Below, in pieces: positions 17,182 to 59,921 of a stretch of 64,000 nt of DNA. The stretch lies in assembly GCA_964605885.1 (NCBI GenBank), contig CAZSED010000011.1, forward strand, positions 1,073 to 65,072. Direction: 5' to 3'. Source of the stretch: an uncultured Dehalococcoidales bacterium. GTDB lineage: Bacteria; Chloroflexota; Dehalococcoidia; GIF9; UBA5629. The translations under genes and the position numbers were made by a program. Each line of letters opens with the position of its first letter. Within the stretch, counting starts at the first letter, position 1. The notes beneath the pieces are model-generated. The model was given only the letters and a program-made list of their open reading frames with translations, was not told where the DNA came from and did no database searches.

Positions 17182-17183
17182 AG

Positions 17184-33980: not shown

Positions 33981-34652
33981 ATGAAAATAAACGTGATGCA
34001 GGACGTGCTCCAGGCCAATGACCGCATAGCCGGTGAGAACAGGGCGCTGTTTAAAAAGAATAAGAACCTGGTGCTCAACCTGATGAGCTCACCCGGCGCC
34101 GGCAAGACCTCCTTGCTGGAAAAGACCGCCGAGAAGCTGGCCGGCAAGCTCAGGCTGGGCGTGGTGGTGGGCGACATCGAGACCACCCGTGACGCCGACC
34201 GCATCAGCAAGTACAACGTCCCCGCCATCCAGCTTACCACCGGGAACGCCTGCCACCTTGACGCCAACATGGTGGCCTCGGCGCTGCCGCACATGCCGCT
34301 GGACAAAATAGACGTGCTGGTGGTGGAGAACGTGGGCAACCTGGTCTGCCCGGCCGAGTTCGTGGTGGGCGAAGACCACAAGATCATGATACTCAGCGTC
34401 ACCGAGGGCGACGAGAAGCCGCTCAAGTACCCGCTGATGTTCCACGAGTCTGCGCTGATGCTCATAAACAAGATTGACCTGGTGCAATACACCAATTTCA
34501 AAATCGACGAAGCTAAAGCCAACGCACGCAAGATAAATCCTGACATAGACATCATTGAGATTTCCTGCACCACGGGTGAGGGGCTGGACAGGTGGGTGGA
34601 CTGGCTGGTAGCCCACCACCGCAAGAAGCTGGACGGGCTGAAAAATGCATGA
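33981..34652 (+). CDS. hypB: Hydrogenase nickel-incorporation GTPase HypB.
   Basis: P-loop SSPGAGKTSLLEK and the signature ENVGNLVCPA. It lacks an N-terminal His-stretch. Confidence 0.9.
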   Translation: MKINVMQDVLQANDRIAGENRALFKKNKNLVLNLMSSPGAGKTSLLEKTAEKLAGKLRLGVVVGDIETTRDADRISKYNVPAIQLTTGNACHLDANMVASALPHMPLDKIDVLVVENVGNLVCPAEFVVGEDHKIMILSVTEGDEKPLKYPLMFHESALMLINKIDLVQYTNFKIDEAKANARKINPDIDIIEISCTTGEGLDRWVDWLVAHHRKKLDGLKNA

Positions 34653-34986
34653 GATGGGCATCGCCCAGAACATACTTGAGATAGCCCTAGACGCGGCCAA
34701 AAAGGAAGGTGCCACCAGGATAACCAGGATCAACATGGTAGTGGGGGAGCTGCGCGGCATCGTACCACTTCAGCTTACCTTCTGTTTCAGCATCGTCGCC
34801 CAGGACACCATGGCCGCCGGCGCTTTTCTCAACGTGGAGGAGGTCCCGGTCAGCGGCCATTGCAATGACTGCCAGTCCGACTTCTCGGTCGAGGAATACC
34901 AGTACCTCTGCCCCAAGTGCAGCAGCACCAACATCCAGATCACGGGCGGCACCGAGCTGCGCGTCAAAGACATAGAGATAGAGTAG
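34645..34986 (+). CDS. hypA: Hydrogenase maturation nickel metallochaperone HypA.
   Basis: MHEMGIAQNILEI N-terminus and a Zn site CNDC...CPKC. It overlaps hypB by 8 nt. Confidence 0.9.
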   Translation: MHEMGIAQNILEIALDAAKKEGATRITRINMVVGELRGIVPLQLTFCFSIVAQDTMAAGAFLNVEEVPVSGHCNDCQSDFSVEEYQYLCPKCSSTNIQITGGTELRVKDIEIE

Positions 34987-44421: not shown

Positions 44422-46308
44422 CTAGAGATTTAACCTCAGATAATACAAGCCTTCACCGCTGCTGACTATCTTGAAGCCGGCTTTCTCAAATATGGAGAGC
44501 ATGGGCATGTTCTCATACAATACCTCGGCCACAAAGGCCAGCAGGCCATTTTTTTTACCAAGGTAAATAAGGTACTGTAAAAGCTCGCTGCCGATGCCCT
44601 GTCTCTGATAGTTATCCCGGACGGCAAAGGCCACCTCGGCGCTGTGGACGTCCTGGCCGATGCCGTACTGCCCGATGCCCAGTATCTTTTCGTTTTCCTC
44701 CTCTCCCTCGGTGGCCAGTATCACCATCTCCTGCGTGTAGTCGATGACCACGAACTCCTGCAGGCGCTCGTGCGGCATGTCCTTCCTGCTGGAGATGAAC
44801 CTGCGGTAGAGGCTTTGATCGGAAAGCGCGTAGAAGAAGTCCTTGACCAGGGGCTCGTCGCTTATCTTGACCGGCCTGAAAAGGACTTCCTTCCCGCTTT
44901 TCATACGGCGGACGGACTCCAGGTTCTCCGGATACTCACCCCGCTTACCCGGCACGAAGGCCTGGTCGCGGTATATCAGGTTCAGCTTCTTGGCCTCCTC
45001 GATCAGCCAGGGCCGGAACTTGGGATGCGCGATGGAGATAAGCTCCATGGCGCGCTCGCGTATGTTCTTGCCGTGCAGGTAGGCGATGCCGTACTCCGAG
45101 ATAACGTAATGTATATCCCCACGCACCATAGTCACGCCCGAGCCCTCGTTAAGGAAGGGGACAATCCTTGACACCGTATCGTCCTGGGCGGTGGACTGGA
45201 TGGTGAGTATGGTTTTGCCGTTATGCGCCAGTATGGCGCCGCGCATAAAATCCGCCTGGCCGCCCACACCGCTGTAAAAGGTCTTGCCCAGCGATTCGGC
45301 CGTGGCCTGGCCGGTCAGGTCTATCTCCAGCGCGCTGTTGATAGCCACCATGTTCTCATGGCGGGCTATAACCAGCGGGTTGTTGGTGTACTCTATCGTC
45401 CTGAATTCCACCGAGGGGTTGTCATTGATGAATTCATAGGTCTCTTTCCTGCCCATGCAGAACGTCGCCACAGTCTTGCCCCTGTCGACCTTTTTGCTGG
45501 AATTATCTATTACTCCCTGTTTCATCAGCTCCGCAATGGCATCGGACATCAACTCCGTGTGCACGCCCAGGTGCTTCTTGGCGGAGAGGCTCATTAATAT
45601 GGAGTTCAACCGGCTGCCATAGCCCACCTGGATGGTATCGCCGTCCTGGATTAGGCGTGAGACGTAGGAGCCGATCTTAGAAGCCACCTCATCGTTGACA
45701 GGAGAGTCGAACTCGAGTACCGGCTCATCATGCCGCACCAGGTAATCGATGCCGTCTATGTGCAGAAATCCGTCCCCGTGCACGCGCGGCATGTTGGCAT
45801 TGATCTGGGCGATTACCAGATCGGCTTTTTCAACCGCGGCGTTGACGATGTCCACGCTGATGCCCAGGCTAACGTACCCGTGGTGGTCGGGCAGGGAGGT
45901 TTGTATCAGGGCCACGTCCACAGGCACTATACCGCGCTGAAACAGCTCCGGCACCTGGGAAAGAAAGATAGGGGTGTAGTCAGCCAGGCCGGCATTTACC
46001 GCGGAGCGCGTGTTGTCGCCTATAAAGAAGGAATTGTGCCTGAAATTGGATTTGAATTTTTCCTGCGTATAGGCCGCCACGCCCAGCGTCCAGACCTGCA
46101 GCACTTCTGCATCGAAAAAGGCCTTGGGATTTGATTCCACGTAGTTGACCAGTGCATTCACCAGGTACTGGGGCTCGGCGCAGGCCGTGCTGATGAATAT
46201 GCGGCTTCCGGGATGGATCCTGCCGAATATTTCTTTCTCCGGGGCGAATTTCTGTGGATACCTGTCCTTCAGATTATCAAGTTCCGATTCACCGGGTTTA
46301 TCACCCAT
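44422..46308 (-). CDS. Fusion protein of a family-I CoA-transferase (acetyl-CoA hydrolase/transferase, 4-hydroxybutyrate CoA-transferase-like) and a C-terminal GNAT acetyltransferase domain.
   Basis: CoA-transferase C-domain signature SGVGGQADFMRGA. C-terminal GNAT motif A is RQGIGSELLQYLIYLGKKNG, with ENMPMLSIFEKAGFKI. Total length 628 aa. Confidence 0.7.
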   Translation of the reverse strand: MGDKPGESELDNLKDRYPQKFAPEKEIFGRIHPGSRIFISTACAEPQYLVNALVNYVESNPKAFFDAEVLQVWTLGVAAYTQEKFKSNFRHNSFFIGDNTRSAVNAGLADYTPIFLSQVPELFQRGIVPVDVALIQTSLPDHHGYVSLGISVDIVNAAVEKADLVIAQINANMPRVHGDGFLHIDGIDYLVRHDEPVLEFDSPVNDEVASKIGSYVSRLIQDGDTIQVGYGSRLNSILMSLSAKKHLGVHTELMSDAIAELMKQGVIDNSSKKVDRGKTVATFCMGRKETYEFINDNPSVEFRTIEYTNNPLVIARHENMVAINSALEIDLTGQATAESLGKTFYSGVGGQADFMRGAILAHNGKTILTIQSTAQDDTVSRIVPFLNEGSGVTMVRGDIHYVISEYGIAYLHGKNIRERAMELISIAHPKFRPWLIEEAKKLNLIYRDQAFVPGKRGEYPENLESVRRMKSGKEVLFRPVKISDEPLVKDFFYALSDQSLYRRFISSRKDMPHERLQEFVVIDYTQEMVILATEGEEENEKILGIGQYGIGQDVHSAEVAFAVRDNYQRQGIGSELLQYLIYLGKKNGLLAFVAEVLYENMPMLSIFEKAGFKIVSSGEGLYYLRLNL

Positions 46309-47419: not shown

Positions 47420-48112
47420 TTGATGGGATTCAAGATAGTTATTGCCGACAGCAACGCAAACTTCATGAGCATGCTGGGCCGGGCACTGCTCGACGCTGAC
47501 TATGTGCTCTACCCGGCCGAATCAAGGGAAAGTGCACTCAAACAGATAACGCAATACGATATTGACGCCTGCATAATAGACGTGGACCTGCCCGGCGGTA
47601 TAGAAGAAGTGCTGCAGGCATGCATGACTAAATCAAAGCCCATCGTCGCCATGGGCACATCCGTTCTTAAGGAGACCGATAAGCTCATCGAGATCATGTA
47701 CTACGGTATACCGTACGTGAAAAAGTTCAATAACGAGGGCCAGGCCAAGCTGGATCATATTATCGCCCGCATGAATGTGCTGCTGCGGACGCTGCTTATC
47801 TTCAGCAAGGACTCCGAGTACCAGCGCGGCGTCATAGCCGGCCTGGAAAGCAAGGGCTACAAGGTCTTTACCGCTGAAAAGGCCGACGACCTGATGCGCT
47901 CCTTCCTGCTGAGCGAACCAAAAGCCGTGCTTGTCTACTTCCCCAATGAGGAGGACCTGGAGGAGCTGAATAAAATCAGGAAAATCGACTCGCAGCTCCC
48001 GATCGCCATTGTGCTTAACAATCAGTCTTCCGAGGCTGCCGATGTGCCGGACACAAAGTCCACCAAAATCCTCGGGCAGGAAGACGTTTCAGACTATCTG
48101 GACAACCTCTGA
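47420..48112 (+). CDS. Orphan response-regulator-like protein with two receiver-like domains and no output domain.
   Basis: The first REC has an acidic pocket and the putative phospho-Asp context IIDVDLPGG. The second half is REC-like but degenerate. Confidence 0.55.
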   Translation: MMGFKIVIADSNANFMSMLGRALLDADYVLYPAESRESALKQITQYDIDACIIDVDLPGGIEEVLQACMTKSKPIVAMGTSVLKETDKLIEIMYYGIPYVKKFNNEGQAKLDHIIARMNVLLRTLLIFSKDSEYQRGVIAGLESKGYKVFTAEKADDLMRSFLLSEPKAVLVYFPNEEDLEELNKIRKIDSQLPIAIVLNNQSSEAADVPDTKSTKILGQEDVSDYLDNL

Positions 48113-48119
48113 TTAAAAG

Positions 48120-50108
48120 TCAGATGGTAATCGGTACGCTTACGTTGACGGTCGACCCCCTTCCAGGCTCGGTCTTGATGGTCAGGGATCCGCTGAGAAG
48201 AGTAACCCTTTCCTGCATACCCACCAGTCCCAGCTTGCCTGCGTGAGAGAGGTCGCCCACAGTCTTGGGTAGCTCGAAGCCCCTGCCGTTATCACTGATG
48301 GTGACCACAACCTCCGTATCTGTAAACTCAATGTGCACGGAAGCCTGCGTGGCCTGGGCGTGCTTGCTGACATTGTTGAGCGCTTCCTGCACTATCCTGA
48401 AGAGGATGAGTTCCATCTCGGGCAGCAGGCGCTGCTCTTTTCCATCGATTTTGAGCCCGATATCGATTCCGCTTTCCTCAGATTTTTGCTTGACCAGCCA
48501 CTTAACGGCCGGCAGCAGACCCAGGTCATCGATAATAGATGGCCTCAGGTCCTGGCTGAAGCGCCTGATGCCCTGCAGCGTGACGCCTATCCTGCGCCTT
48601 ATCTCCTGCAGCACAGTCCGCTGCTGCTGGGTCAGGCTGGAATTGCCCCTGATAAAATTGTCCATCTGCCTGGATATGGCAAATAAAGCCTGGGCAGTAT
48701 CGTCGTGCAGCTCGCGCGCCACCCTTTTCCGCTCCTCCTCCTGGGCCCTGGTGATCTGGTTGAGGTAGTAGCGAAGGTTGTTCTGCATCCTCCTCTCTTC
48801 CGTCACGTCGCGTGCTATGTGTTGGAAGCCCACCGGCTCGTCGTCGATGGTCATCAGACTGGAGGTAACCATCACGGTCTTGCGCACGCCGTCCTTGGTA
48901 ACCGTCTGCTGCTCGTAGGGCTGTGGGAACGGCTCTCCATTCAACAGTTTGTGCCGGACCTCCCTGGCCAGGTTGAGCATTCCCTCATCCATGAACTCCT
49001 GCACGTTCCGGCCGATGAACTCCCCGGTGGGGTATCCGGTCAGCTCCTGCGATGCCCTGTTAGCCGCCAGTATCTTGCCGCTTATATCGTGGAACCAGAT
49101 GGCATCATGAGCATTTTCGAACAGATTGCGATAGTCCCTGGCTGACTTGTAAAGCTGGTCGGCTATTTGCCGCGCCTCCTCGTACAGCGTGGCGTTGGAG
49201 AGGGCCGAGGCCAGCTGTCCGGCTATGGTGCTCAGCAGGTCGATCTCGTCCGGCAAAAAGGTGCGAGGACGGCGCATGGCCACGCACAATGTGCCTATGA
49301 CCTCACCCTTGGATTTCATGGGCACTATCAGCTCGGGGTGTATCTTGTTGCGGATGATGGCCGGCCGGGTGAGACGGGGATCGTTGGAGGCGTCAGGCAC
49401 CAGCATAACTTCGCCGGTGGCGGCAACCTGCCCGTTGAATCCTTCTCCAAGCTTGACCTGGTCAAGCTCCCGGGCGGTCTCGCTGGAGATGCCCTCGTAG
49501 GCGGTCAGCGTCAGCTCATTCTGGGACTGCATGGTGTAGACCAGGATGACCTCAACCTCCATGACCTCGCCCACCATATCCACCGCCGTCTCGATGACCT
49601 TGGCCGGGTCAAGGTACTGGCTCAGCGCATTGGAGATTGTATTCAGCGTTGCCAGCCTCCTGGCATTGGCCCTGGCCTCACGGATTCTCGTCTGCAGCTG
49701 CTCCTGTGTGTTCTCCAGCGCAGACACGGCCTTGACATAGCGCCTGTCGTCATTATCCTTAATGCGCACCCAGTTAATAAAGGCCAGCCCGGCAATGGTG
49801 ACCAGCGCCACTTCCAGCAGGGCGTCGCTAACGTTGACGGAATAGAGCAGCGCCTGCGGCAGCATCACGGCCAGCGATGCGCCCAAGGCAATCAATCCCG
49901 GCAGAATGCCCATTATGAAACCCGTATAGAGCACGATCAGAAGGAACAGGTTCCGCTCTACCGTATGCCGGCTGAGGTTAAAAAGGAAAACGTCCAATTT
50001 AAAGCCGGGCCAGATGATGTCGCGGTAGAGGAAGAGGGTCACTATAACAAACAGGACCAGTACGACCCAGAACTGGTAGCGGGTCCATATTTTATAAGGG
50101 ATCCTCAT
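48120..50108 (-). CDS. Sensor histidine kinase (TM, GAF, PAS, HisKA_3, HATPase_c; NarL-partner type).
   Basis: N-terminal TM helices. GAF region (LVYTMQSQNELTLTAYEGIS), PAS region (AIWFHDISGKILAANRASQELTGY), HisKA_3 H-box ELHDDTAQAL, and an ATPase N-box/G-boxes (LNNVSKHA, GRGFEL, GLVGMQER). Confidence 0.8.
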   Translation of the reverse strand: MRIPYKIWTRYQFWVVLVLFVIVTLFLYRDIIWPGFKLDVFLFNLSRHTVERNLFLLIVLYTGFIMGILPGLIALGASLAVMLPQALLYSVNVSDALLEVALVTIAGLAFINWVRIKDNDDRRYVKAVSALENTQEQLQTRIREARANARRLATLNTISNALSQYLDPAKVIETAVDMVGEVMEVEVILVYTMQSQNELTLTAYEGISSETARELDQVKLGEGFNGQVAATGEVMLVPDASNDPRLTRPAIIRNKIHPELIVPMKSKGEVIGTLCVAMRRPRTFLPDEIDLLSTIAGQLASALSNATLYEEARQIADQLYKSARDYRNLFENAHDAIWFHDISGKILAANRASQELTGYPTGEFIGRNVQEFMDEGMLNLAREVRHKLLNGEPFPQPYEQQTVTKDGVRKTVMVTSSLMTIDDEPVGFQHIARDVTEERRMQNNLRYYLNQITRAQEEERKRVARELHDDTAQALFAISRQMDNFIRGNSSLTQQQRTVLQEIRRRIGVTLQGIRRFSQDLRPSIIDDLGLLPAVKWLVKQKSEESGIDIGLKIDGKEQRLLPEMELILFRIVQEALNNVSKHAQATQASVHIEFTDTEVVVTISDNGRGFELPKTVGDLSHAGKLGLVGMQERVTLLSGSLTIKTEPGRGSTVNVSVPITI

Positions 50109-50147: not shown

Positions 50148-50813
50148 TCAGGGCAGCTCTTCCAGGGTCAGCCAGCCTTTTTTCAGGCCGTAAACGATGG
50201 CTTCCGAGCGTGAGCCCACGCCCAGCTTGTTGAATATGCTGCGCAGGTGCGTCTGCACCGTCCTCACGCTCAGGGTCAGGCTATCGGCGATCTCCATGTT
50301 GCTCATGCCCTTGGCCGCCAGGAGCAGGACTTCCATTTCACGGTCGCTCAGCACCTCGCCCAGGGTCTGTGTCGTCTGTTCTTCGGCAGGAGACCTCAAC
50401 CTGTTGAGGACCTTCTTCATGATCTTGGGATGAAGCACCGGCTCTCCGGTCATGACCTGCCTTATGGCGTCGATCAGTTCCTCGCCGCTGGACTCCTTGA
50501 GCAGATAGCCGGCAGCACCCGCCTCCAGCAGCGCAAAAACATATTCGTCATCATCGTAGCCTGTTAATACCAGTACTGCCATATTGGGATAGAGCGCCTT
50601 GATCTGCTTGGTGGCCTCTATGCCATTAAGCCTGGGCATGGAAACATCCATAATAATGATCTCGGGCTTCAACCTTTTGGCAAGCTCCACCGCTTCAATG
50701 CCGTCGCTGGCTTCGCCTGTTACTTCAAAATCTTCCTGGGATTCCAAGAGGCGCCGGGTTCCTTCGCGCACCACTTTGTGGTCCTCAGCCAGCAGGATCC
50801 TGATTCTCTCCAT
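50148..50813 (-). CDS. NarL/LuxR-family response regulator.
   Basis: REC domain (ILLAEDHKVVREG...IIMDVSMP) plus a C-terminal LuxR HTH (MEIADSLTLSVRTVQTHLRSIFNKLGV). Confidence 0.9.
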   Translation of the reverse strand: MERIRILLAEDHKVVREGTRRLLESQEDFEVTGEASDGIEAVELAKRLKPEIIIMDVSMPRLNGIEATKQIKALYPNMAVLVLTGYDDDEYVFALLEAGAAGYLLKESSGEELIDAIRQVMTGEPVLHPKIMKKVLNRLRSPAEEQTTQTLGEVLSDREMEVLLLAAKGMSNMEIADSLTLSVRTVQTHLRSIFNKLGVGSRSEAIVYGLKKGWLTLEELP

Positions 50814-51203
50814 TTTAATTTCCTACCAAGCTGTGATTATAACCGCAACAGATACACTATTCAAGCCGCAACCAACTCTTGTTCAGTACAAATGCCTAAG
50901 CATTTAACCTGAAACATTTATATACGGCGGCACAGGGCTTCAGCGAGAAAACAAATAGAATTCCCTGGCGGTTGCCTGTATCTGCAGATATTAGGCTTTG
51001 AGGCGGATGAAATAAGGCCGGGATTAAGGTAAATTCTCAACTGTCTAAGCCTTGATATTCTATCGAGGGCTGCTGGCCAGCCCGTCAGAACAGCTTGGAG
51101 GTACGCCATACCGGATAACATAATTAATAAGCTCAACCAGGTAAAGCAACCCGAAACAGAAGAACAGCCTAACTTCTGGGCCGGCAAGTCCCCCTGCTGG
51201 GAG

Positions 51204-51452
51204 ATGTGCCACTGCCCGGCCATGATCAGGGAGGAGTGCCCTGCGCCCAAATACCAGTTTCTGGCCTGCTGGGAAATAGAGGGCACGTACTGCAAGCTGG
51301 ACGATTACGGCGACAGCGGCACGGATACCAGCATCTGCCAGGTCTGCCGGGTATACAAAAAATATGGAGCCGATCAACCAATAGAGCTGAAACTTTTCGG
51401 CCGCGGAATCGACAGCTCTTTAAAATCGCTGGAGAAGGTCGCCAAGTTTTGA
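51204..51452 (+). CDS. Small Cys-rich protein with two CWE motifs (possible two-CW-type metal- or redox-binding domain).
   Basis: MCHCPAMIREECPAPKYQFLACWEIEGTYCKLDDYGDSGTDTSICQVCRVY has 9 Cys in 55 residues. The same frame is open from 51033 and encodes ...PCWE immediately before the ATG, with no in-frame ATG, GTG or TTG upstream. The start and the full extent are therefore uncertain. Confidence 0.4.
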   Translation: MCHCPAMIREECPAPKYQFLACWEIEGTYCKLDDYGDSGTDTSICQVCRVYKKYGADQPIELKLFGRGIDSSLKSLEKVAKF

Positions 51453-51477
51453 CTCTGAAGCTAAAAAAGGCTACAAT
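51449..51477 (+). promoter_or_regulatory. Near-consensus sigma70 promoter TTGACT-N17-TACAAT for the hydrogenase operon.
   Basis: TTGACT at 51449-51454 and TACAAT at 51472-51477. The predicted TSS near 51484 gives a 5' UTR of about 97 nt before hoxE. Confidence 0.5.
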
Positions 51478-51511
51478 TTACACTTGGTCTGGCTACATTT
51501 TTATGTCAATC

Positions 51512-51545
51512 AGGGGAATAGGCTGCACACGGGCCTTATTCCCCT
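51512..51545 (+). other. Stem-loop in the predicted 5' UTR of the hydrogenase operon.
   Basis: AGGGGAATAGG-ctgcacacggg-CCTTATTCCCCT (one bulge). It is followed by TTAATAACG rather than a U-tract, so it is unlikely to be a plain terminator. Confidence 0.3.
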
Positions 51546-51580
51546 TAATAACGTATATAGCCTGAGTTAGGAGGAATTTT

Positions 51581-52093
51581 ATGGCAAAGGTAAAGTCAGC
51601 CCCAATACCCGCTTCAGATACGGGAAGAGGCTTTGCGGGCAAGGCGTTCCAGCGCATCCAGGGCATCATCGATGATACGGGCGGTCAGGCCGGGGCACCC
51701 ATACGCGTGCTGCAGCAGGCGCAGGGCATAGTCGGATACCTGCCCCCCACAGTGCTCAAAACCATTTCAAGGGACCTCAAGATCCCCCTGGCCGAGCTTC
51801 ACGGCGTAGTCACCTTCTACAGTTTCTTTACCATGCAGCCCAAGGGCAGGCACGTCATCCAGGTCTGCCTGGGCACCGCCTGCTATGTGAAAGGCGGCCA
51901 GGATATCCTGGACATCCTGAAAAAGGATTACGGACTTGAACCGGAAGGCATAACTCCCGACGGCAAGTTCTCCCTGGAGATCGTACGCTGCCTGGGCTGC
52001 TGCGGCCTGGCGCCGGTCATTGCCATCGGCGACGATATCCACCGCAAGGTCAAACCCGGCCAGATGAAAGACATTCTGAGTATGTACCACTAG
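51581..52093 (+). CDS. hoxE: NuoE/HoxE-like [2Fe-2S] thioredoxin-fold diaphorase subunit.
   Basis: Cys ligands in CLGTACYVKGG and VRCLGCCGLAPV. AGGAGG RBS. Length 170 aa. Confidence 0.85.
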   Translation: MAKVKSAPIPASDTGRGFAGKAFQRIQGIIDDTGGQAGAPIRVLQQAQGIVGYLPPTVLKTISRDLKIPLAELHGVVTFYSFFTMQPKGRHVIQVCLGTACYVKGGQDILDILKKDYGLEPEGITPDGKFSLEIVRCLGCCGLAPVIAIGDDIHRKVKPGQMKDILSMYH

Positions 52094-52105
52094 GAGGTAA
52101 ATGAA

Positions 52106-55100
52106 GTGCCTAAGATAACCTCTATTGAAGATTTAAATAAACTTAAGAAAGCCGTCGAACCCAGGCTGAAGATCCGCGCGGATGCGGATTTTGGCCATTT
52201 CAAGGGCACCCCGGAGATCTGCATCCAGCAGTGCAGGGGCATGGGCTGCACCGCAGCCGGGGGCGATAAGGTGACCGAAAAATTTGAAGAGCTGATCGCT
52301 AAGAAGGGCATCGGCGGCAAGGTCAATATAGTCAGGACCGGCTGCCTCGGCCCCTGCGAGATGGGCCCGACTGTGATCGTCAACCCCGGTGACATCCTTT
52401 ACGTCAGGGTCAAGCCCGAAGATGTGCAGGAAATCTTTGAGAAGCATATTTTAAACGGCCAGATCGTGGAGCGCCTTGTCTATCACGACCCCACCACCAA
52501 TGAGGCTGTGCCCGAACGGCTTAAGATCAACTTCCTGGCCGACCAGGAGTTCCGCATCCTGCATAACAACGGCATCATCGACCCCTGGAACATCGAAGAG
52601 TACATAGCCCGCGGCGGCTATGAAGCGCTGGCCAGGGCCCTGTATAAGATGAAGCCGGAGGACGTCCTGGAAGAGGTCAAGAAGTCCGGCCTTCGCGGCA
52701 GGGGCGGTGCAGGCTTCCCCACGGCCACCAAGTGGGGCTTCCTCAAAAGCTCGCCCGGCACGGTCAAATACCTGGTCTGCAACGGCGACGAGGGAGACCC
52801 CGGCGCATATATGAACCGTGCGGTGCTGGAAGGCAACCCCCATTCAATAATAGAAGGTATGGCTCTGGGCGCTTACGCCGTGGGCAACGTCAGCCAGGGC
52901 TTCGCCTATATACGTGCCGAGTACCCGCTGGCCATCGAAACACTCAGCGCGGCCATCGCTCAAGCCCGTGAGTACGGGCTGCTCGGCAAAAACATACTGG
53001 GCACCGATTTTCAATTCAACCTGGACATTTTCCCCGGCGCGGGAGCTTTCGTCTGCGGCGAGGAGACGGCTCTGCTCATCTCTATCGAGGGCAAGCGCGG
53101 CATGCCGCGGCAGAGGCCCCCCTTCCCCTCGGATAAGGGCCTTTTTGGCAAGCCCACGGCCATCAACAACGTGGAAACCTGGTCCATAGTTCCCAGGATC
53201 ATTCGTGAGGGCGCAGACTGGTTCGCCTCTGTGGGCAGCGATAAGAGCAAGGGCACCAAGTCCTTCAGCCTGGTAGGCAAGGTCAATAACGTCGGCCTGG
53301 TCGAGGTGCCGCTGGGCACCAGCCTGGGCAAGATAGTATTCGATATCGGCGGCGGCGTGCCCAAGGGCAAGAGGTACAAGGCCACCCAGATGGGCGGCCC
53401 CTCGGGCGGCGTCATACCCATAGAACACGTCAACGTGCCGGTCGACTACGAGTCCGTCACGGCGCTGGGCGCCATTATGGGCTCGGGCGGCCTGGTCGTC
53501 ATGGACGAGGACAACTGCATGGTGGACATCGCCAAGATGTTCCTGGGCTTCACCAGGGACGAGTCCTGCGGCAAATGTGTCCCCTGCCGTGCCGGCATAC
53601 CTAAGCTGCTCTCAATACTGAACAAGATCACCAGCGGCCAGGGCACCATGGAGGACCTGGATATCCTGCAGGAACTTTCGGAGATGATCCAGAGTTGCTC
53701 CATCTGCGGCCTGGGCCAGACGGCCCCCAACCCGGCTGTGTCTACGCTGAGGCACTTCAGGGAAGAGTATGAAAGCCACATCATCGACAAGCACTGCCCG
53801 GCCTCGCTCTGCCAGGCTCTGTTCCGCGCACCCTGTCAGCATACCTGCCCGGTAGGCCTGGATGTGCCCGGCTATATGGCGCTGACCAAGGAAGGCAGGC
53901 CGGCTGACGCCTACAAGCTCATCAGCCAGAGGCTGCCGCTTCCCATGACGGTAGGCCGCGTCTGCCCTCATCCCTGCGAGAAGAAATGCCGCAGGGGCCA
54001 GGTGGACGAACCCATCGCCATCAGGCATATAAAGAGGTATGTATCGGACTTTGCCTGGGAGCACAACCTCTCCTACGTGCCTGAGATCAAGGGCTCGAAG
54101 GCTGAGAAAGTGGCCATAATCGGCGCAGGGCCGGCGGGGCTCTCCGCAGCCTGGGACCTGGCAGTCGAGGGCTACAAGGTAACCATCTTCGAGGCCCTGC
54201 CTGTGGCGGGCGGCATGCTGGCCGTGGGCATACCTGAGTACAGGCTCCCCAAGGACGTACTGAATAAGGAAATCGATAATATTAAGAAGCTGGGCATCGA
54301 GATCAAGCTCAACAGCCCGGTCAAGGACATAGATTCACTCTTCAAGGACGGCTACAAGGCCGTGTTCGTGGCCATCGGCGCCCACAAGGGCGACAAGATG
54401 GGCATACCCGGCGAGGAGCTGTCAGGCGTCTATGACGCCATAGACTTCCTGCGGAATATAAACCTTGGCAAAGAAATCTCCATCCGAAGCAAGGTTGCCG
54501 TCATCGGCGGCGGCAACTCGGCTATCGACGCCGCCAGGGTGGCGGTTCGCAAGGGCGCCAAGGAAGTGCACATAGTATACCGCCGCGAAAAAGTGGATAT
54601 GCCTGCTGAAGAGGAAGAGATTGCAGCAGCCGAGGAAGAGGGCGTGAAGCTCCACGTCCTGGCCGCGCCGGTCAAGGTGATCGGCAAGGACGGCAAGGTG
54701 TCTGCTATTGAATGCGCACGCATGGCGCTCGGAGAGTTCGACAGGAGCGGCAGGCGTTCACCCAAGCCCATACAGGGCTCAGAGTTTACCCTTGAAGTGG
54801 ACATGCTGATCGAGGCCATCGGCCAGAGGCCGGACACCGCCTCAATGAACCTGGGCGGCGCCAAGACCGGCAAGGGCGGAACGCTGGTTGCCGATAAACG
54901 GACGCTGGCCACAGAGCAGAAGGGGGTCTTCGTCGGCGGTGACGCCTTTACCGGCCCCTGGACAGTTATTGAGGCCATCGCATCCGGCCAGAGGGCTGCC
55001 TCATCCATCAAACGCTTCCTGAGCGGTAAAGAGCTCGGTCCCAGGGTCGACCGCAAGGATCCCGAGACCATCGAATACAACCATATCGCCCCCACTGACG

Positions 55101-55246
55101 AAGAGACCAGCCCGCACCCAAGGGTTGCAATGAAGGAAATACCGCTGGCCGAGAGGAAGTCTACGTTCAAGGAAGCCGTGGTCAACTTCACCGCCAAGGA
55201 AGCCAAGGAAGAATGCACCCGATGCCTGCGATGCGATATCGGATAG
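52106..55246 (+). CDS. NuoF/HoxF-like NAD(P)H-binding flavoprotein with an N-terminal extra [2Fe-2S] thioredoxin-like domain, fused to a C-terminal GltD/NfnB-like FAD/NAD(P)H oxidoreductase module.
   Basis: N-terminal CRGMGC...CLGPCEMGP (2Fe-2S). NuoF FMN and NADH site GLRGRGGAGFPTATKWGF. N3 cluster ESCGKCVPCRAG...CSICGLGQTA. This is followed by two GltD-type [4Fe-4S] Cys clusters (CQHTCPVG, CPHPCEKKC) and dinucleotide folds VAIIGAGPAGLSAAWDLA and VAVIGGGNSAIDAA. GTG start at 52106 with AGGAGG 8 nt upstream. Length 1046 aa. Confidence 0.85.
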   Translation: MPKITSIEDLNKLKKAVEPRLKIRADADFGHFKGTPEICIQQCRGMGCTAAGGDKVTEKFEELIAKKGIGGKVNIVRTGCLGPCEMGPTVIVNPGDILYVRVKPEDVQEIFEKHILNGQIVERLVYHDPTTNEAVPERLKINFLADQEFRILHNNGIIDPWNIEEYIARGGYEALARALYKMKPEDVLEEVKKSGLRGRGGAGFPTATKWGFLKSSPGTVKYLVCNGDEGDPGAYMNRAVLEGNPHSIIEGMALGAYAVGNVSQGFAYIRAEYPLAIETLSAAIAQAREYGLLGKNILGTDFQFNLDIFPGAGAFVCGEETALLISIEGKRGMPRQRPPFPSDKGLFGKPTAINNVETWSIVPRIIREGADWFASVGSDKSKGTKSFSLVGKVNNVGLVEVPLGTSLGKIVFDIGGGVPKGKRYKATQMGGPSGGVIPIEHVNVPVDYESVTALGAIMGSGGLVVMDEDNCMVDIAKMFLGFTRDESCGKCVPCRAGIPKLLSILNKITSGQGTMEDLDILQELSEMIQSCSICGLGQTAPNPAVSTLRHFREEYESHIIDKHCPASLCQALFRAPCQHTCPVGLDVPGYMALTKEGRPADAYKLISQRLPLPMTVGRVCPHPCEKKCRRGQVDEPIAIRHIKRYVSDFAWEHNLSYVPEIKGSKAEKVAIIGAGPAGLSAAWDLAVEGYKVTIFEALPVAGGMLAVGIPEYRLPKDVLNKEIDNIKKLGIEIKLNSPVKDIDSLFKDGYKAVFVAIGAHKGDKMGIPGEELSGVYDAIDFLRNINLGKEISIRSKVAVIGGGNSAIDAARVAVRKGAKEVHIVYRREKVDMPAEEEEIAAAEEEGVKLHVLAAPVKVIGKDGKVSAIECARMALGEFDRSGRRSPKPIQGSEFTLEVDMLIEAIGQRPDTASMNLGGAKTGKGGTLVADKRTLATEQKGVFVGGDAFTGPWTVIEAIASGQRAASSIKRFLSGKELGPRVDRKDPETIEYNHIAPTDEETSPHPRVAMKEIPLAERKSTFKEAVVNFTAKEAKEECTRCLRCDIG

Positions 55247-55259
55247 GAGATAAGGCAAA

Positions 55260-57221
55260 ATGAGTGAAATAACATTAACCATTAATGGAAAACAGGTCAA
55301 AGGCAACCAGGGCGATACCATCCTGGATATCTGCACGGCCAACGGCATAGACATACCCACTCTATGCCACCATAAAGGCCTGACCGACGTTGCCGCCTGC
55401 AGGCTCTGCCTGGTCGAGATCGAGAAGGAAAGGGGCCCCAGGCCCGCCTGTACCTATCCGGCACGCGACGGCCTGGTGATAAATACCAGCAGCGAAAAAC
55501 TGGAAAAGTACCGCCGACTGATACTGGAGTTGCTCTTCACGGAGAGGAACCACCTGTGCGCTTACTGCGTCGCCAGCGGCGATTGCGAGCTGCAGAGCAT
55601 GGCCTACCGCTACCAGATGGACAGCACGCGCTACCAGTACTCCTGGCCCAACGTTATAGTCGATTCTTCCCATCCCTACGTGGTAATGGACCACAACAGA
55701 TGCATACTGTGCGGCAGGTGCATCAGGACCTGTGACGAGATCACAGGCGCCCACGCACTGGACTTTGGCAAGCGCGGCTGGAAGACCATGGTCTGCGCCG
55801 ATATCAACCAGCCCCTGGGCGAGTCCTCTTGCATCTCCTGCGGCGGCTGCTTTCAGGCATGCCCCACAGGAGCAATCTTCTCCAAGGGAAGCGCCTACAA
55901 GGGAAGGCCGGATGAATGCCAGGCCGTTGAATCGACCTGCGCCATCTGCGGCATTGGCTGCGACATCAAGGGGCTGGTCAAGGACAATAAGGTCGTCAGG
56001 ATAGACAGCCCGGACATGACCAGGCCGCGCGGCCTGCTGTGCGATATGGGACGTTTCGGACCGTTGTATAAAGCTGCGGAGAGGATCACGACCCCCATGA
56101 AGAAAAACACCAAGGGCCAGCTGGTTGATTGCACTTATGATGAAGCTTTCGAGGCCATCGCCAAGAAGCTCGGCGGCCTTTCAAGCATGGCCGGCCTGGC
56201 TTCCAGCAAAGCCAGCACGGAGGCCCTCAAGGCTTTCGCGGACTTAATGACCAGGACACTGAACAGCAAAATGGTCGATACCCTGGACGGGGATGATTTC
56301 AGGACCATTTCTGCAGCGACCGCCCAGGCTGGCGGCGACGGCAACCTGAAAATGGAGGCCAAGCTCGAGGATATCCTGATCGCGGACTGCATTCTGGTCA
56401 TCGGGGCACATCCCATCAAGACACACCCGGTGATCGGCTCATATATTATGCGCGCCGCTACCAAGAACAAGGCACAACTGGTCGTTCTTGACCCGTTGCG
56501 CAATCCCTTCACCTTCCGCGCCACCGCCTGGCTGAAGCCGGCCGAGGGCAAGGAAGGACTGACCATCAAGGCCCTGGGCAATGCCATCCTGGATCACGGC
56601 CTAGCCAAGACCGCCGGCGATAAGAACAAGTTTGGAGCCGAGTTCAAGGAGGTCGAAGCCAAGAAGGCCGCCAAGGACCTGGGAATCGACGTCCATGATA
56701 TTTATAAGTCGGCCGAGGCTCTGGCCGAGGCCAAGAACGTCGTCATCATTTACGGCAACGGCATTCTGCAGTATAAGAACCCTGACCTGGTGACCACCAT
56801 ACTGAACCTGGCCGGACTGGTCAGCAGCAAACCCAGGGTCATCTCATTGAAGAGGAACGGCAACAGCCGGGGCGCCTGGGAGATGGGAATCAGCAATGTT
56901 AAAAGCTCGGTCATGGCCGAGGTAGCCAAAGGAAAGGCCAAGGGGCTGTACCTGCTGCTGGCTGACGACATGGCCGACTCGCAGGCGCTGGCTGACAGCC
57001 TGAAAGGGCTGGACTTCCTGGTTGTGCAGGCCAGCTACCAGTCGCCGGTTACGGCCAAAGCCAACGTGGTGCTGCCCTCTTTGCTGTGGACTGAGGCAAA
57101 AGGCAGCTATACCACACTGGACGGCATAAGCAAGTCCACCAGACCCATGGTCAAGTCCATGGCGGAGATAAAAGATGACGCGGCAACCCTGAAAGAGGTT
57201 GCCGGGCATCTGAAGAAATAA
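55260..57221 (+). CDS. NuoG/formate-dehydrogenase-alpha-like Fe-S subunit, N-terminal cluster modules plus a partial molybdopterin-oxidoreductase fold.
   Basis: [2Fe-2S] CHHKGLTDVAACRLC; His-ligated [4Fe-4S] CAYCVASGDCELQ; two ferredoxin-type clusters CILCGRCIRTC and CISCGGCFQACP; the MopB Fe4S4 domain CAICGIGCDIKGL. At 653 aa it is too short for a complete catalytic FdhA. Confidence 0.8.
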   Translation: MSEITLTINGKQVKGNQGDTILDICTANGIDIPTLCHHKGLTDVAACRLCLVEIEKERGPRPACTYPARDGLVINTSSEKLEKYRRLILELLFTERNHLCAYCVASGDCELQSMAYRYQMDSTRYQYSWPNVIVDSSHPYVVMDHNRCILCGRCIRTCDEITGAHALDFGKRGWKTMVCADINQPLGESSCISCGGCFQACPTGAIFSKGSAYKGRPDECQAVESTCAICGIGCDIKGLVKDNKVVRIDSPDMTRPRGLLCDMGRFGPLYKAAERITTPMKKNTKGQLVDCTYDEAFEAIAKKLGGLSSMAGLASSKASTEALKAFADLMTRTLNSKMVDTLDGDDFRTISAATAQAGGDGNLKMEAKLEDILIADCILVIGAHPIKTHPVIGSYIMRAATKNKAQLVVLDPLRNPFTFRATAWLKPAEGKEGLTIKALGNAILDHGLAKTAGDKNKFGAEFKEVEAKKAAKDLGIDVHDIYKSAEALAEAKNVVIIYGNGILQYKNPDLVTTILNLAGLVSSKPRVISLKRNGNSRGAWEMGISNVKSSVMAEVAKGKAKGLYLLLADDMADSQALADSLKGLDFLVVQASYQSPVTAKANVVLPSLLWTEAKGSYTTLDGISKSTRPMVKSMAEIKDDAATLKEVAGHLKK

Positions 57222-57241
57222 ATGCCCCAAGGAGTGATCAG

Positions 57242-57778
57242 ATGGCTAAAGTAAAAGTTGCTACCGTGTGGTTGGAAGCGTGCTCAGGATGTCACATGTC
57301 CTTCCTGGACATCGATGAGTTTATTATCGACGTGTCCAAGCTGGTCGAGTTTCACAGGAGCCCGATAACAGATATCAAGAAATTCACTCCCGTAGATGTG
57401 GGCATTGTCGAAGGCTCTGTCGGCAACGAGGAAGAGAAAGAGATCATCGAAGAGCTGCGCCATAACTGCAAGATATTGATGGCCTGGGGCGACTGCGCCT
57501 GCTTCGGCGGCGTCTGCGCTATGCGCAGCTCCCTGGACAAGGACGAGGTGCTCAAATACGGTTACATCGACACCGCCAGCACCTACAAGGGCAAGATACC
57601 TCAATCTCCCGGCGTGCCGGCCCTGCTGGATAAGGTTTATCCGGCCAACCAGATAGTTAAAGTTGATTGCTATGTGCCCGGTTGTCCTCCGGAGCCTGAG
57701 GCTATCAAGTACGCCTTGACGGAGCTGCTGGCAGGCAGAATACCCATCCTGCCCAGCAACATTATGCGCTTTGATTAA
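57242..57778 (+). CDS. hoxY: [NiFe]-hydrogenase small subunit (group 3, HoxY/MvhG-like, NuoB fold).
   Basis: Proximal-cluster Cys pattern CSGC...GDCACFGG...CPPEP. AAGGAG RBS. Length 178 aa. Confidence 0.85.
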   Translation: MAKVKVATVWLEACSGCHMSFLDIDEFIIDVSKLVEFHRSPITDIKKFTPVDVGIVEGSVGNEEEKEIIEELRHNCKILMAWGDCACFGGVCAMRSSLDKDEVLKYGYIDTASTYKGKIPQSPGVPALLDKVYPANQIVKVDCYVPGCPPEPEAIKYALTELLAGRIPILPSNIMRFD

Positions 57779-57788
57779 GAGGTGAAAA

Positions 57789-59216
57789 ATGACAGGCAAG
57801 ATAATTGAAATCAACCCCGTTACCAGGGTGGAAGGACACGGCAAGGTCACCATCCAGCTGGATGAGGCCGGCGATGTCGCTTCGGCCAGGTTTCACAATA
57901 CCCAGTTCCGCGGCTTTGAAAGATTCTGCCAGGGGCAGGTCTTCTGGGAGATGCCAAACATTACGACACGCATCTGCGGCATCTGCCCGGTCAGTCACCA
58001 ACTGGCATCGGCCAAGGCCTGCGATGCTATACTCGGCGTAGAGCTGACGCGCCCAGGTAAGCTGTTAAGGGAATTACTGCACCAGGCCCAGTATATACAG
58101 TCCCATGCGCTGCACTTTTTCCACCTGGCCAGCCCGGATTTTTTACTGGGCTTTGATTCCAATCCCGCTACCAGGAATGTTATCGGGCTTATAGGAGCGG
58201 ATCCTGGACTGGCAACCGAGGCGGTCAAGCTGCGTAGCTTTGGCCAGACTATAATTAAAAAGCTGGGCGGCAAAAAGATCCACATGAACGCAGCTTGTCC
58301 CGGCGGGATGACAACTGCCCTTAAGGTTGAAGACAGGGATGCTTTCCTCAAACAGATTGATTGGGCCATTGGAGATGCCCAGCTGGCCGTAAAAATTTTT
58401 AAAGACTACGTGGGCAAAAACCAGGCTATGGTCGACACCTTTGCCACATTCCCCTCCGCCTATATGGGCATGGTCGACGAAAACAACAACCTCGCCCTGT
58501 ATGATGGCAACCTCAGGCTGATTGATTCCAAGGGTGTTGTACTGGAAGAGCAGTTCAACCCGGCGAAATACCTTGATATCATAGCCGAACACGTAGAAGA
58601 CTGGTCATATATGAAATTCCCCTTCTATAAGAGCCTCGGCTACCCGGGCGGCATCTACCGCGCCGGACCGTTGGGCCGCCTCAATGTCTGCAACGGCATC
58701 ACTACACCGCTGGCCAATGCTGAGCTTAAAAACTTCAAGAAACTGAGCAAATTCGGTTTTGTCGAGGGCTCCATGTATTTCCATTATGCACGTCTGATCG
58801 AGCTCATCTACTGCATCGAAAGAGCACGTGAGATACTGGAGGATAAGGACGTTACATCCACAGATCTGCAGGTTAATTCGACCAAATACAATGAGCATGG
58901 AGTCGGCGTTGTAGAGGCGCCAAGGGGAACCCTCTTCCATGACTACTGGGTAGACGAGACAGGTAAAATCACCGGGGTCAATCTTATCGTAGCCACAGGC
59001 AATAATAATGCGGCCATGAACCGCTCTGTGTACGAAGTTGCCCGGGACTACATCAAGAAGGGCAACGTCACCGAGGGCATCCTCAACAGGGTCGAAGTCG
59101 CCATACGCTGCTATGATCCCTGCCTTTCATGCTCCACGCACGCGCTGGGCCAGATGCCCCTGCTGATACAGCTCCGCTCGCCTGAGGGTGAGATAGTCAA
59201 GGAAATCTACAGCTAG
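57789..59216 (+). CDS. hoxH: [NiFe]-hydrogenase large subunit (group 3, HoxH-like).
   Basis: N-terminal Ni-binding motif [11 protein letters not shown]-terminal DPCLSCSTH followed by a 24-residue tail typical of endopeptidase-processed large subunits. Confidence 0.9.
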
Positions 59217-59288
59217 GTAGAGTACAGGCACAGTTCAAGGCGGGTTACAAATTTGTAACCCGCCTTTCTTTTCTGATATCGTTTCAAC

Positions 59289-59921
59289 ATGTCAGCCACT
59301 ATCGTCATCGAAGGCCGGGAGGTTAGGGCCAGCAAGGGCGCCAGCCTGCTGTGGACCGCCCTGGACAACGGCTTCTTCATACCCAACCTGTGCAGCCTCA
59401 AGGGCATCAAACGCCCCTTCGCATCCTGCCGCCTGTGCTACGTCGAAATTGCAGGGCGGCCCGGGCCGGTCACCGCCTGCACCGAAAAGGTCAGCGACGG
59501 CCTTTCCGTCAGCCTGAACAGCCCTGCCATCGCCCGGCTGCGCAAGACTGCCTTCGACCTCCTTCTGAGCAATCACCGGGTGGACTGCGGCCGCTGCGTA
59601 AAAAACGGCAGTTGCGAGCTCCAGAAGATAGCCTACCGGGAACATTTCAAGCTGAGAGACAGGCGCTTTCCCAGGATCGACATGGACTTCCCGCTTGACG
59701 CCAGCCATCCCCTTTTCAATTTCGACAGGAACAAGTGTGTGCTGTGCGGCAGGTGCGTCTGGGTCTGCCAGCAGAAAGGCAAGGGAATACTGGATTTCGC
59801 CTACCGGGGCATCAAAACTGTGGTCTCCACCTTCGCCAACGTCCCGCTGGTGGAATCAGGCTGCAACTCCTGTCGTGCCTGCGTTGAGGTATGCCCGGTG
59901 GGCGCCCTTTACTTTAAATGA
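59289..59921 (+). CDS. HoxU-like ferredoxin subunit ([2Fe-2S] plus His-ligated and ferredoxin-type [4Fe-4S]; NuoG N-terminal module only).
   Basis: CSLKGIKRPFASCRLC, CGRCVKNGSCELQ, CVLCGRCVWVCQ and CNSCRACVEVCP. Length 210 aa. Weak RBS. Confidence 0.7.
   Translation: MSATIVIEGREVRASKGASLLWTALDNGFFIPNLCSLKGIKRPFASCRLCYVEIAGRPGPVTACTEKVSDGLSVSLNSPAIARLRKTAFDLLLSNHRVDCGRCVKNGSCELQKIAYREHFKLRDRRFPRIDMDFPLDASHPLFNFDRNKCVLCGRCVWVCQQKGKGILDFAYRGIKTVVSTFANVPLVESGCNSCRACVEVCPVGALYFK

Follow-up and report, generated by a model that had tools for sequence, protein, structure and literature searches.

The window analysed here is a stretch of 64,000 nucleotides (nt) from an uncultured Dehalococcoidales bacterium (positions 1,073 to 65,072 of contig CAZSED010000011.1), and the subject of this work is a cluster of [NiFe]-hydrogenase genes within it, hydC-hydB::gltD-hydA-hydS-hydL, in which the NuoF-like gene hydB is fused to a module of the GltD type. 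The cluster is followed by a gene for a HoxU-like iron-sulphur (Fe-S) protein, and the features of the region are collected in Table 1. An earlier account of this DNA, hereafter the sequence-only reading, had described six co-directional genes, and the proteins that it had assigned to them, including their sizes, are confirmed by the open reading frames (ORFs) and by Pfam and NCBIfam matches. The position given there for the start of the cluster, 51033, belongs to an unrelated Cys-rich frame, and the NuoE-like gene, hydC, starts at 51581. From hydC through the HoxU-like gene the intergenic gaps are 12, 13, 20, 10 and 72 nt. Shine-Dalgarno sites precede hydC, hydB, hydA, hydS and hydL (in this order AGGAGG, AGGAGG, AGGAGA, AAGGAG and AAGAGGTG); a good ribosome binding site had been claimed for every gene, which is true of these five, while no Shine-Dalgarno site was found before the start of the HoxU-like gene. 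Six related loci from Dehalococcoidia (L081-L086) keep the order C-B-A-S-L, and the five genes from hydC to hydL form a conserved and real operon.

Table 1 Features of the hydrogenase operon and of its surroundings in the window.
Feature	Position	Strand	Description
hydC (BfuC/NuoE/HoxE-like)	51581-52093	+	170 amino acids (aa); Pfam 2Fe-2S_thioredx E = 5e-46
hydB::gltD fusion	52106-55246	+	1046 aa, GTG start; Pfam, NCBIfam and PDB matches
GltD/NfnA(Stn)-type module inside hydB	53828-55243	+	residues 575-1046; PDB matches, junction alignments
hydA (BfuA/NuoG-like)	55260-57221	+	653 aa; Pfam, NCBIfam, 7t2r_A match
hydS, short [NiFe] small subunit	57242-57778	+	178 aa; Pfam Oxidored_q6, 7t2r_E match
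hydL, [NiFe] large subunit	57789-59216	+	475 aa; 7t2r_D match
Intrinsic-terminator-like hairpin and T-tract	59237-59276	+	between hydL and HoxU-like gene; stem-loop 59237-59266
HoxU-like Fe-S protein gene	59289-59921	+	210 aa; Pfam, NCBIfam, Cys layout
Sigma-70-like promoter candidate, TTGACT-17-TACAAT	51449-51477	+	about 100 nt 5' of hydC; 10/12 consensus positions
Small Cys-rich open frame	51033-51452	+	weak two-CW-like match
GAF-PAS-HisKA_3 sensor kinase	48120-50108	-	candidate regulator, divergent from operon
LuxR-type response regulator	50148-50813	-	candidate regulator, divergent from operon
hypB	33981-34652	+	nickel-insertion maturase
hypA	34645-34986	+	nickel-insertion maturase

The product of the fused gene carries the Pfam domains 2Fe-2S_thioredx (residues 37-113), Complex1_51K (191-363), NADH_4Fe-4S (474-558), Fer4_20 (565-654) and Pyr_redox_2 (668-961), and NCBIfam PRK12771 matches residues 527-1043 with 500 bits. 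It can be divided into a B5 [2Fe-2S] domain (37-125), a NuoF core with the flavin mononucleotide (FMN), the NADH site and the B1 cluster (140-558), and the GltD module (575-1046). The thioredoxin-like [2Fe-2S] domain at the N-terminus and the complete GltD-type module with two [4Fe-4S] sites, two Rossmann folds and a site for flavin adenine dinucleotide (FAD) and NAD(P)H, both of which had been read from the sequence before, were thus recovered by domain searches, and so was the combination of a NuoF-type FMN/NADH site with a second FAD/NAD(P)H site in one protein. That the fusion is intact also stood: it is one continuous ORF, and its length (1027-1054 aa) and Pfam set are common to more than 120 clusters with 62-100% identity, which rules out that a frameshift artefact has joined two genes. 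The named clusters among these are from Chloroflexi or Dehalococcoidia metagenome-assembled genomes, and the members of the exact-sequence cluster are annotated as "NAD-reducing hydrogenase" or "NADP oxidoreductase".

The place of the GltD module in HydB was defined by alignment with HydB (7t2r_B) of the electron-bifurcating NiFe-HydABCSL from Acetomicrobium mobile (hereafter A. mobile); the alignment ends at residue 541 of the 597 residues in that chain. The final ~56 residues of a canonical HydB are the B3/B4 domain, a ferredoxin-like domain with two [4Fe-4S] clusters; in L061, a Bipolaricaulota locus with an unfused NiFe-Bfu HydB, it can be recognised by its two CxxCxxCxxxCP motifs, and a motif scan of the window's fusion protein found no CxxCxxCxxxCP. 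Here the GltD motif C577xxxC581P begins 8 residues past C569, followed by C620, C624 and C628 and by a C-terminal RC1040LRC1043D, and the alignment to the GltD modules of NfnA/StnC sets in at residue ~100 of the latter. Since the homology to HydB stops and GltD starts right past C569, the module replaces the B3/B4 domain and is not, as the sequence-only reading had it, an addition to the NuoF-like protein; by these alignments it occupies the place of the ferredoxin-reducing domain of HydB. The swap is mechanistically important because the low-potential path in the Bfu enzymes runs from C1 over B3 and B4 to ferredoxin, and a B4 mutant loses bifurcation.

The remaining part of HydB is strictly conserved. 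Scored across 55 fused and 26 unfused HydB, the B1 cysteines (488, 491, 494 and 534), the B2/Zn ligands C471, H558, C564 and C569, the GGPSG motif, A234, M236 and F315 were all invariant. All three bifurcation signature motifs, by which bifurcating NuoF homologues are told from non-bifurcating ones, are present in the fusion, namely A234-Y-M236, F315 and GGPSG at 430-434; the AFM motif reads A-Y-M in the window, and among the fused sequences the middle residue is Y in 19/55 and F in 36/55. The B5 cysteines are residues 43, 48, 80 and 84. The ligands of the B2 site in A. mobile HydB are C438, C476, H525, C531 and C536 (Feng et al. 2022), which with an alignment offset of +33 map to C471, T509, H558, C564 and C569 in the window, and either Cys or Thr at the second of these positions (Thr509) is normal variation.

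With respect to the character of the GltD module, its best PDB matches are the Bfu-type NfnA/StnC chains 9bov_A (433 bits), 9n5u_A (388 bits) and 8oh5_C (376 bits), and NfnB of the NfnSL type scores lower (351 bits for 4ylf_B, and 309). Two [4Fe-4S] clusters are predicted, with Cys577, 581, 620, 624, 628, 1040 and 1043 and Lys643 as ligands, and the nucleotide motifs are an FAD GxGxxG at 673-678 and, in the NADPH fold, a GGGN at 801-804 and a YRR at 825-827. None of the seven cluster cysteines and none of the FAD glycines (G673, G675 and G678) varies across the 55 fused HydB-GltD proteins, of which 54 have the YRR after the second Rossmann strand. We take YRR to be the 2'-phosphate-binding NADPH signature of GltD, NfnB and DPD, and judged by these motifs the FAD site of the module quite probably reacts with NADP(H). 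The comparison of cofactor motifs with HydB, StnC/NfnA and NfnB that had been proposed earlier has thus given the B1, B2, B5, FAD and YRR motifs, with a Lys as the proximal ligand. This Lys643 aligns with K170 of StnC, and NfnB from Thermotoga and Pyrococcus shows a Glu there; in the fused set of 55 this residue is mostly K (45 proteins), otherwise H (nine) or R (one). In StnC the FAD does not bifurcate, and its FAD-proximal cluster has the strictly conserved Lys K170, as opposed to Glu in the bifurcating NfnB (Kumar et al.). The Lys in place of the NfnB Glu, together with the kinship to StnC/NfnA, therefore argues against a second bifurcating flavin, and the module appears to be of the non-bifurcating Stn/NfnA type. 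No PyrK-like gene for an NfnS partner was found among the window ORFs scanned.

For the family assignment, each subunit was compared with the structures in the PDB. The best chain for all five is from the A. mobile enzyme: 7t2r_A for HydA (398 bits, residues 1-646), 7t2r_B for the HydB part (757 bits), 7t2r_C for HydC (142 bits), 7t2r_D for HydL (569 bits, 55% identity across the entire protein with its tail) and 7t2r_E for HydS (209 bits, full length). The large subunit scores 569 bits against NiFe-Bfu, 401 against group 3d and 388 against group 3c structures, at most 133 and only partially against group 1, and about 20 bits in NuoD-type matches; it is 42% identical both to the group 3d HoxH (5XF9) and to the group 3c MvhA, and a rough neighbour-joining tree puts it beside 3d, in a group with HydL of A. 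mobile and further large subunits that are Bfu-linked. On these grounds the enzyme very probably belongs to the NiFe-HydABCSL family (Bfu family type 3). From the Bfu type 3 BfuB/C core we find the FMN, the NADH site, B1, C1, B2 and the signature motifs, and the B3/B4 domain is lacking. Classical HoxEFUYH, which the sequence-only reading had used as its frame of reference, is not the best fit according to both the subunit scores and the HydL tree, and the bridging subunit here is the 653-aa HydA. A full-length NuoG-like subunit had seemed atypical in that frame; because all five subunits best match 7T2R it is the normal HydA of the family.

The individual subunits have the expected cofactor sites. 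In HydC the ligands of the [2Fe-2S] cluster C1 are Cys96, 101, 137 and 141. HydA contains five Fe-S motifs, for a [2Fe-2S] cluster (C36, 47, 50 and 64), a His-ligated [4Fe-4S] cluster (C100, 103 and 109), two further [4Fe-4S] clusters (C148-158 and C191-201) and an A3-type cluster (C227, 230, 234 and 261). Its Molybdop_Fe4S4 and Molybdopterin folds were found without a Molydop_binding domain, the pterin-like fold being degenerate, and we infer that HydA carries no pterin cofactor. The absent Molydop_binding domain, the length of 653 aa and the end-to-end match to A. mobile HydA also rule out that HydA is a formate dehydrogenase. HydS has the proximal cluster only, starts with MAKVKVATVW without a twin-arginine motif, and feeds electrons via the A3 cluster of HydA. 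The Ni-Fe ligands of HydL are Cys63/66 and Cys445/448 (DPCLSCSTH). A membrane-bound hydrogenase of group 1 or group 4 is ruled out by the low scores, the lack of a twin-arginine translocation motif and the lack of a membrane subunit, and the enzyme is by all signs a soluble cytoplasmic group-3 [NiFe] hydrogenase, as had been claimed. The large subunit ends in a 24-residue tail (59154-59216, residues 452-475) that has been conserved between the window protein and A. mobile HydL, whose tail reads AVGKMPLKLELVGPTGEILKEV; for a peptide that maturation normally removes, such conservation is unusual.

A sixth subunit, a second HoxU-like ferredoxin, had been counted as part of the enzyme. The 210-aa protein has all 15 cysteines and the expected His for one [2Fe-2S] and three [4Fe-4S] clusters, and it is 39% identical to the N-terminus of HydA from the same operon. 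In the 72-nt gap in front of its gene lies a hairpin with a stem of 13 base pairs and a 4-nt loop followed by a T-tract (folding energy -25.2 kcal/mol, z = -5.1), which is identical in the relative with 89% identity (L081) and kept through two compensatory pair changes in the one with 81% (L084). The HoxU-like orthologues in L081, L084 and L086 are 67%, 60% and 61% identical to the window protein, to be compared with 89%, 81% and 67% for HydB, and their genes follow immediately in L081 and L084, and at a downstream distance of 2.3 kb in L086. Next to hydL the gene is absent in L085, L082 and L083, and in L085 a HycI protease gene takes its place. Because its gene lacks a ribosome binding site, follows a conserved terminator and in relatives is either missing or shifted, the HoxU-like protein is probably not a core subunit and would instead be a linked accessory or an independent protein, which leaves HydCBASL as the apparent core enzyme. 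In L082 (9633-10961) and L083 (9609-10937) the place of the HoxU-like gene, directly 3' of hydL, is occupied by the gene for a 442-aa flavoprotein with Pyr_redox_2 and Pyr_redox_dim domains, of the dihydrolipoamide-dehydrogenase or soluble-transhydrogenase class.

In the mechanism that we propose, H2 would be oxidised at HydL and the electrons would pass via the proximal cluster of HydS and the clusters of HydA to B1/FMN, with NAD+ being reduced at the FMN site of HydB. The [2Fe-2S] cluster of HydC, which is mobile in the characterised relatives and there normally passes electrons to B3/B4, would gate a branch into the GltD clusters and the FAD, where NADP+ would be reduced. The enzyme, which probably connects hydrogen with both NADH and NADPH, would then be a reversible H2:NAD+/NADP+ oxidoreductase with NADP(H) in the place of ferredoxin. 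Judged by the position and the motifs of the module, we consider the chances even that NADP(H) indeed replaces ferredoxin on the gated branch, and we suggest only tentatively that the two branches are obligatorily coupled in a ferredoxin-free reaction, 2 H2 + NAD+ + NADP+ <-> NADH + NADPH + 2 H+. According to Buckel and Thauer the in vivo potential of the NADP couple lies some 100 mV below that of the NAD couple, and coupled reduction would therefore allow NADPH to be formed at a lower H2 pressure than direct reduction.

Several points weigh against this proposal. Literature searches found neither biochemistry nor a structure for any HydB-GltD fusion, and the AlphaFold2 model of the fusion (made from a 13-sequence alignment) was too poor to place the GltD clusters relative to C1 and B2, with a mean predicted local distance difference test score (pLDDT) of 58 and values below 50 in the NuoF core. 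The in vivo potential of NADP+ is just modestly below that of NAD+; little might be gained from obligatory coupling, and the two nucleotide sites could work independently. Fused HydB elsewhere adjoins a GltB-like protein with a Glu_synthase domain, and the GltD half can therefore be a conduit to a partner and not a terminal NADP(H) site. Finally, HoxEFUYH from Synechocystis, which has no B3/B4, still bifurcates to ferredoxin, probably by way of the surface [2Fe-2S] clusters E1/F2 (June-2026 preprint), and the loss of B3/B4 alone therefore does not exclude ferredoxin.

This last point leads to a reading in which the core of HydB and HydC still bifurcates from H2 to NAD+ and ferredoxin and the GltD/FAD part adds an NADP(H) port, making the enzyme a four-substrate hub that combines a hydrogenase with an Nfn-like transhydrogenase. 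Ferredoxin would dock on the surface [2Fe-2S] clusters C1/B5 or, like in NfnSL, on the Fe-S domain of GltD. In favour of it, the three bifurcation motifs are present together with B5 and C1, Hox provides the precedent (June-2026 preprint), and the homologous two-cluster domain of NfnSL is the ferredoxin-facing arm of that enzyme; yet the proximal cluster in the window has the Lys of the mid-potential, non-bifurcating Stn type and not the Glu of NfnB, the B3/B4 domain is missing from HydB, and the operon is without a linked ferredoxin gene. We therefore find the hub rather unlikely.

The opposite reading, a plain NAD(P)+-reducing hydrogenase that does not bifurcate at all and in which the FMN and FAD sites are independent ports that give dual specificity and no energetic coupling, would fit with the two complete nucleotide sites and with the source annotations cited above, and loss of B3/B4 is used in the literature as a marker of non-bifurcating HydB and HoxF. 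It is difficult to reconcile with the strict retention of HydC, B5, the AFM-type motif, the Phe and GGPSG, which are reported to be absent from non-bifurcating relatives, and with a GltD module that is grafted not on HydA but exactly at the hinge of the gated branch (the B2/Zn site), and we judge it unlikely. A GltD FAD that acts as a second, NfnB-like bifurcating flavin, giving two bifurcation centres, has been postulated for the FeFe sub-type I BfuABC on the basis of domains (Zheng & Huang 2024), and the module is indeed homologous to NfnB (351 bits, 4ylf_B). We hold this to be very improbable here: Lys643 stands where NfnB has Glu, the module is nearer to StnC/NfnA, whose FAD does not bifurcate, and the operon has no partner gene of the NfnS/NfnA type with [2Fe-2S] and FAD. 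A gated branch ending in NADP(H) is therefore the reading that we prefer.

The sequence-only reading, which had taken the fusion to be unusual, had proposed to look for it in related genomes, where it does recur, in Dehalococcoidia and in many phyla; it is not rare, and its FeFe form is found in the literature. The pattern scan for fusions used one genome per species, and the matches listed are relatives with 44-58% identity and not the close ones. Among these matches listed, full-length fusions were from Deltaproteobacteria, Anaerolineae, Acidobacteriota, Bacteroidales, Clostridia, Halanaerobiales, Planctomycetota, Omnitrophota, Verrucomicrobiota and one Loki archaeon, and it is this spread over many phyla from which we conclude that the fusion is not rare. 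The fused enzyme is common in uncultured Dehalococcoidia and Anaerolineae. A neighbour-joining tree of the HydB core, in which fused and unfused as well as NiFe-linked and FeFe-linked sequences are intermingled, is too rough for the number of fusion events to be read from it.

The neighbours were surveyed for 57 fused genes. [FeFe] HydA with H-cluster motifs was found at at least 12 loci, proteins of 880-1020 aa that resemble formate dehydrogenase (Fdh) at 8 loci, and pairs of NiFe small and large subunits in L018, L038, L043, L047, L060 and L081-L086, while L002, L030, L034 and L035 have a short HoxU-like gene and then a gene for a ~530-aa protein with a Glu_synthase domain. The last four share a cluster of four genes (L002 420-6424, L030 8956-15354, L034 9070-15448 and L035 9508-15420, the latter from the Loki archaeon) for HydC, the fused HydB-GltD, the HoxU-like protein (226-239 aa) and the ~530-aa protein, whose Glu_synthase domain is of the GltB FMN type. 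This looks like a Bfu-type, glutamate-synthase-like enzyme, of which we know of no description. An Anaerolineales metagenome-assembled genome has two fused hydB-gltD genes in one locus (L047 2268-16519), one followed by genes for HydA, HydS, HydL and a protease and the other by a NuoG-like gene. Directly upstream of and divergent from the fused hydCBASL of a relative with 67% identity lies a group 3c-type cluster (L086 2211-6939, minus strand), whose products are an HdrA-like flavoprotein, a protein resembling MvhD/FlpD, and small and large subunits of 320 and 487 aa, respectively.

In the surroundings of the operon, hypA and hypB are the only maturation genes and lie at the upstream place given for them earlier; no hypCDEF genes are among the window ORFs scanned, and tblastn with two HycI/HydD queries detected no HycI/HoxW-type protease in the window (nothing below E = 0.7), in agreement with the sequence-only reading on both accounts. 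The maturation protease and hypCDEF are needed from elsewhere in the genome. The promoter-like site at 51449-51477 is a candidate only, because sigma-70-like sites in the region are no commoner than in shuffled sequence. In L081 and L084, too, the genes for the sensor kinase and the response regulator are found at this position with respect to hydC, suggesting a two-component system dedicated to regulation of the hydrogenase, and a second receiver-domain protein is encoded beside them at 47420-48112 (plus strand). Between the two-component genes and hydC the Cys-rich frame is kept in close relatives. In this frame the first ATG, GTG or TTG is at 51204 (82 aa), and its orthologues are 125 aa (L081) and 148 aa (L084) long; the similarity extends 5' of codon 51204, and the gene is therefore N-terminally shortened or has a non-canonical start. 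NCBIfam two_CW_domain matches it with 23.9 bits, which is below the cutoff of 35, and the protein may be a redox or metal sensor that partners the adjacent two-component system. Further away, 44422-46308 (minus strand) encodes a 628-aa acetyl-CoA hydrolase/transferase with a fused C-terminal GNAT acetyltransferase domain, whose position is kept in L081 and L084, and 15181-18086 (minus strand) holds an iron-uptake locus unrelated to the hydrogenase, with a FeoB gene and a fusion of a DtxR-type repressor with two FeoA domains.

The gating of the low-potential branch in Bfu-type enzymes is still debated, and to our knowledge this branch ends in ferredoxin in every characterised Bfu member. The operon belongs to a large family of natural variants that have the ferredoxin arm swapped for an NADPH-flavin module and the bifurcating core strictly kept, and it could serve as a good experimental handle on the Bfu mechanism. 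It bears on the questions of whether a hydride carrier can be the acceptor on the gated branch, whether coupling of the NAD and NADP pools to H2 can do without ferredoxin, and what the Lys-ligated cluster does. If NAD and NADP reduction were coupled as tentatively suggested above, Dehalococcoidia could obtain NADPH from H2 at pressures too low for direct NADP+ reduction, and the argument would extend to the HydB-GltD fusions with FeFe and Fdh partners, which are widespread. With annotations such as "NAD-reducing hydrogenase" or "FAD-dependent oxidoreductase", metabolic models may therefore misassign the H2 route to biosynthetic NADPH, and the models affected are those of the abundant subsurface Dehalococcoidia and Anaerolineae.

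Among known enzymes, NiFe-HydABCSL from A. mobile (PDB 7T2R/7T30, Feng et al. 2022) has the same five subunits, including the long NuoG-like HydA with the A3 cluster and the short HydS, and its HydB shares B5, FMN, B1 and the 4Cys/His-type B2 site with the window protein. It differs in that A. mobile HydB ends in the B3/B4 domain where the window has the 470-aa GltD module, and in that its operon holds a protease gene, hydD, and a HisK gene, neither of which is in the operon described here; the hosts are a member of the Synergistetes and of the Dehalococcoidia, respectively. HoxEFUYH of group 3d likewise has a soluble diaphorase of NuoE/NuoF/NuoG type and a short small subunit, and HoxF is also without B3/B4, but the bridging HoxU has ~240 aa compared to 653 aa for HydA, HoxF has no GltD module, HoxH is only 42% identical to HydL, and Hox does not use NADP(H) (June-2026 preprint). 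A survey of Chloroflexi mentions nqoF-like/nqoG contexts for group 3d enzymes and does not mention the fusion.

For the GltD module the closest kin are StnABC/NfnABC (8OH5, 9BOV, 9N5U), with which it shares the Cys layout, including the C-terminal RCxxC, and the proximal Lys, and the HydBC-type core is shared as well. In Stn/Nfn the module is located inside the NuoG-like subunit, feeding mid-potential electrons to a Y-junction, and B3/B4 and ferredoxin are retained, whereas in the window it is on HydB at the place of B3/B4, and a hydrogenase is present. Residues 575-1046 share fold and cofactors (two [4Fe-4S], FAD and the YRR NADPH site) with the large subunit of NfnSL (NfnAB), with GltD and with SudA. 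Compared with NfnSL, the proximal ligand is Lys and not Glu, the first Cys pair has moved to the C-terminus (RC1040LRC1043), and the module has no NfnS partner and is covalently joined to a NuoF-type protein.

The swap itself has a parallel among the [FeFe] enzymes. A large survey of the Bfu family from 2022 required a ferredoxin-type 4Fe-4S domain in BfuB, and an in silico study later described a "sub-type I" BfuB of the group A3 [FeFe] hydrogenases, in which B3/B4 is replaced by a DPD_II and an FAD/NAD(P) domain, and postulated, without experiments, a second bifurcating FAD in sub-type I BfuABC (Zheng & Huang 2024). This is the same swap as in the window HydB (Fer4_20 and Pyr_redox_2), with junction and ligands shared by 55 fused sequences that come from many phyla. 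The partner of sub-type I is an [FeFe] HydA and here it is the [NiFe] HydSL with an H-cluster-free HydA, and the FAD proposed to bifurcate in sub-type I is set against the Lys ligand in the window module, which argues for the Stn type. Full-text literature searches found no description of a B3/B4-to-GltD swap together with a NiFe module. Collectively, the comparisons indicate that the window enzyme is a NiFe-HydABCSL combined with a BfuB of sub-type I, in which a swap known for the FeFe form would appear in a new, NiFe form.

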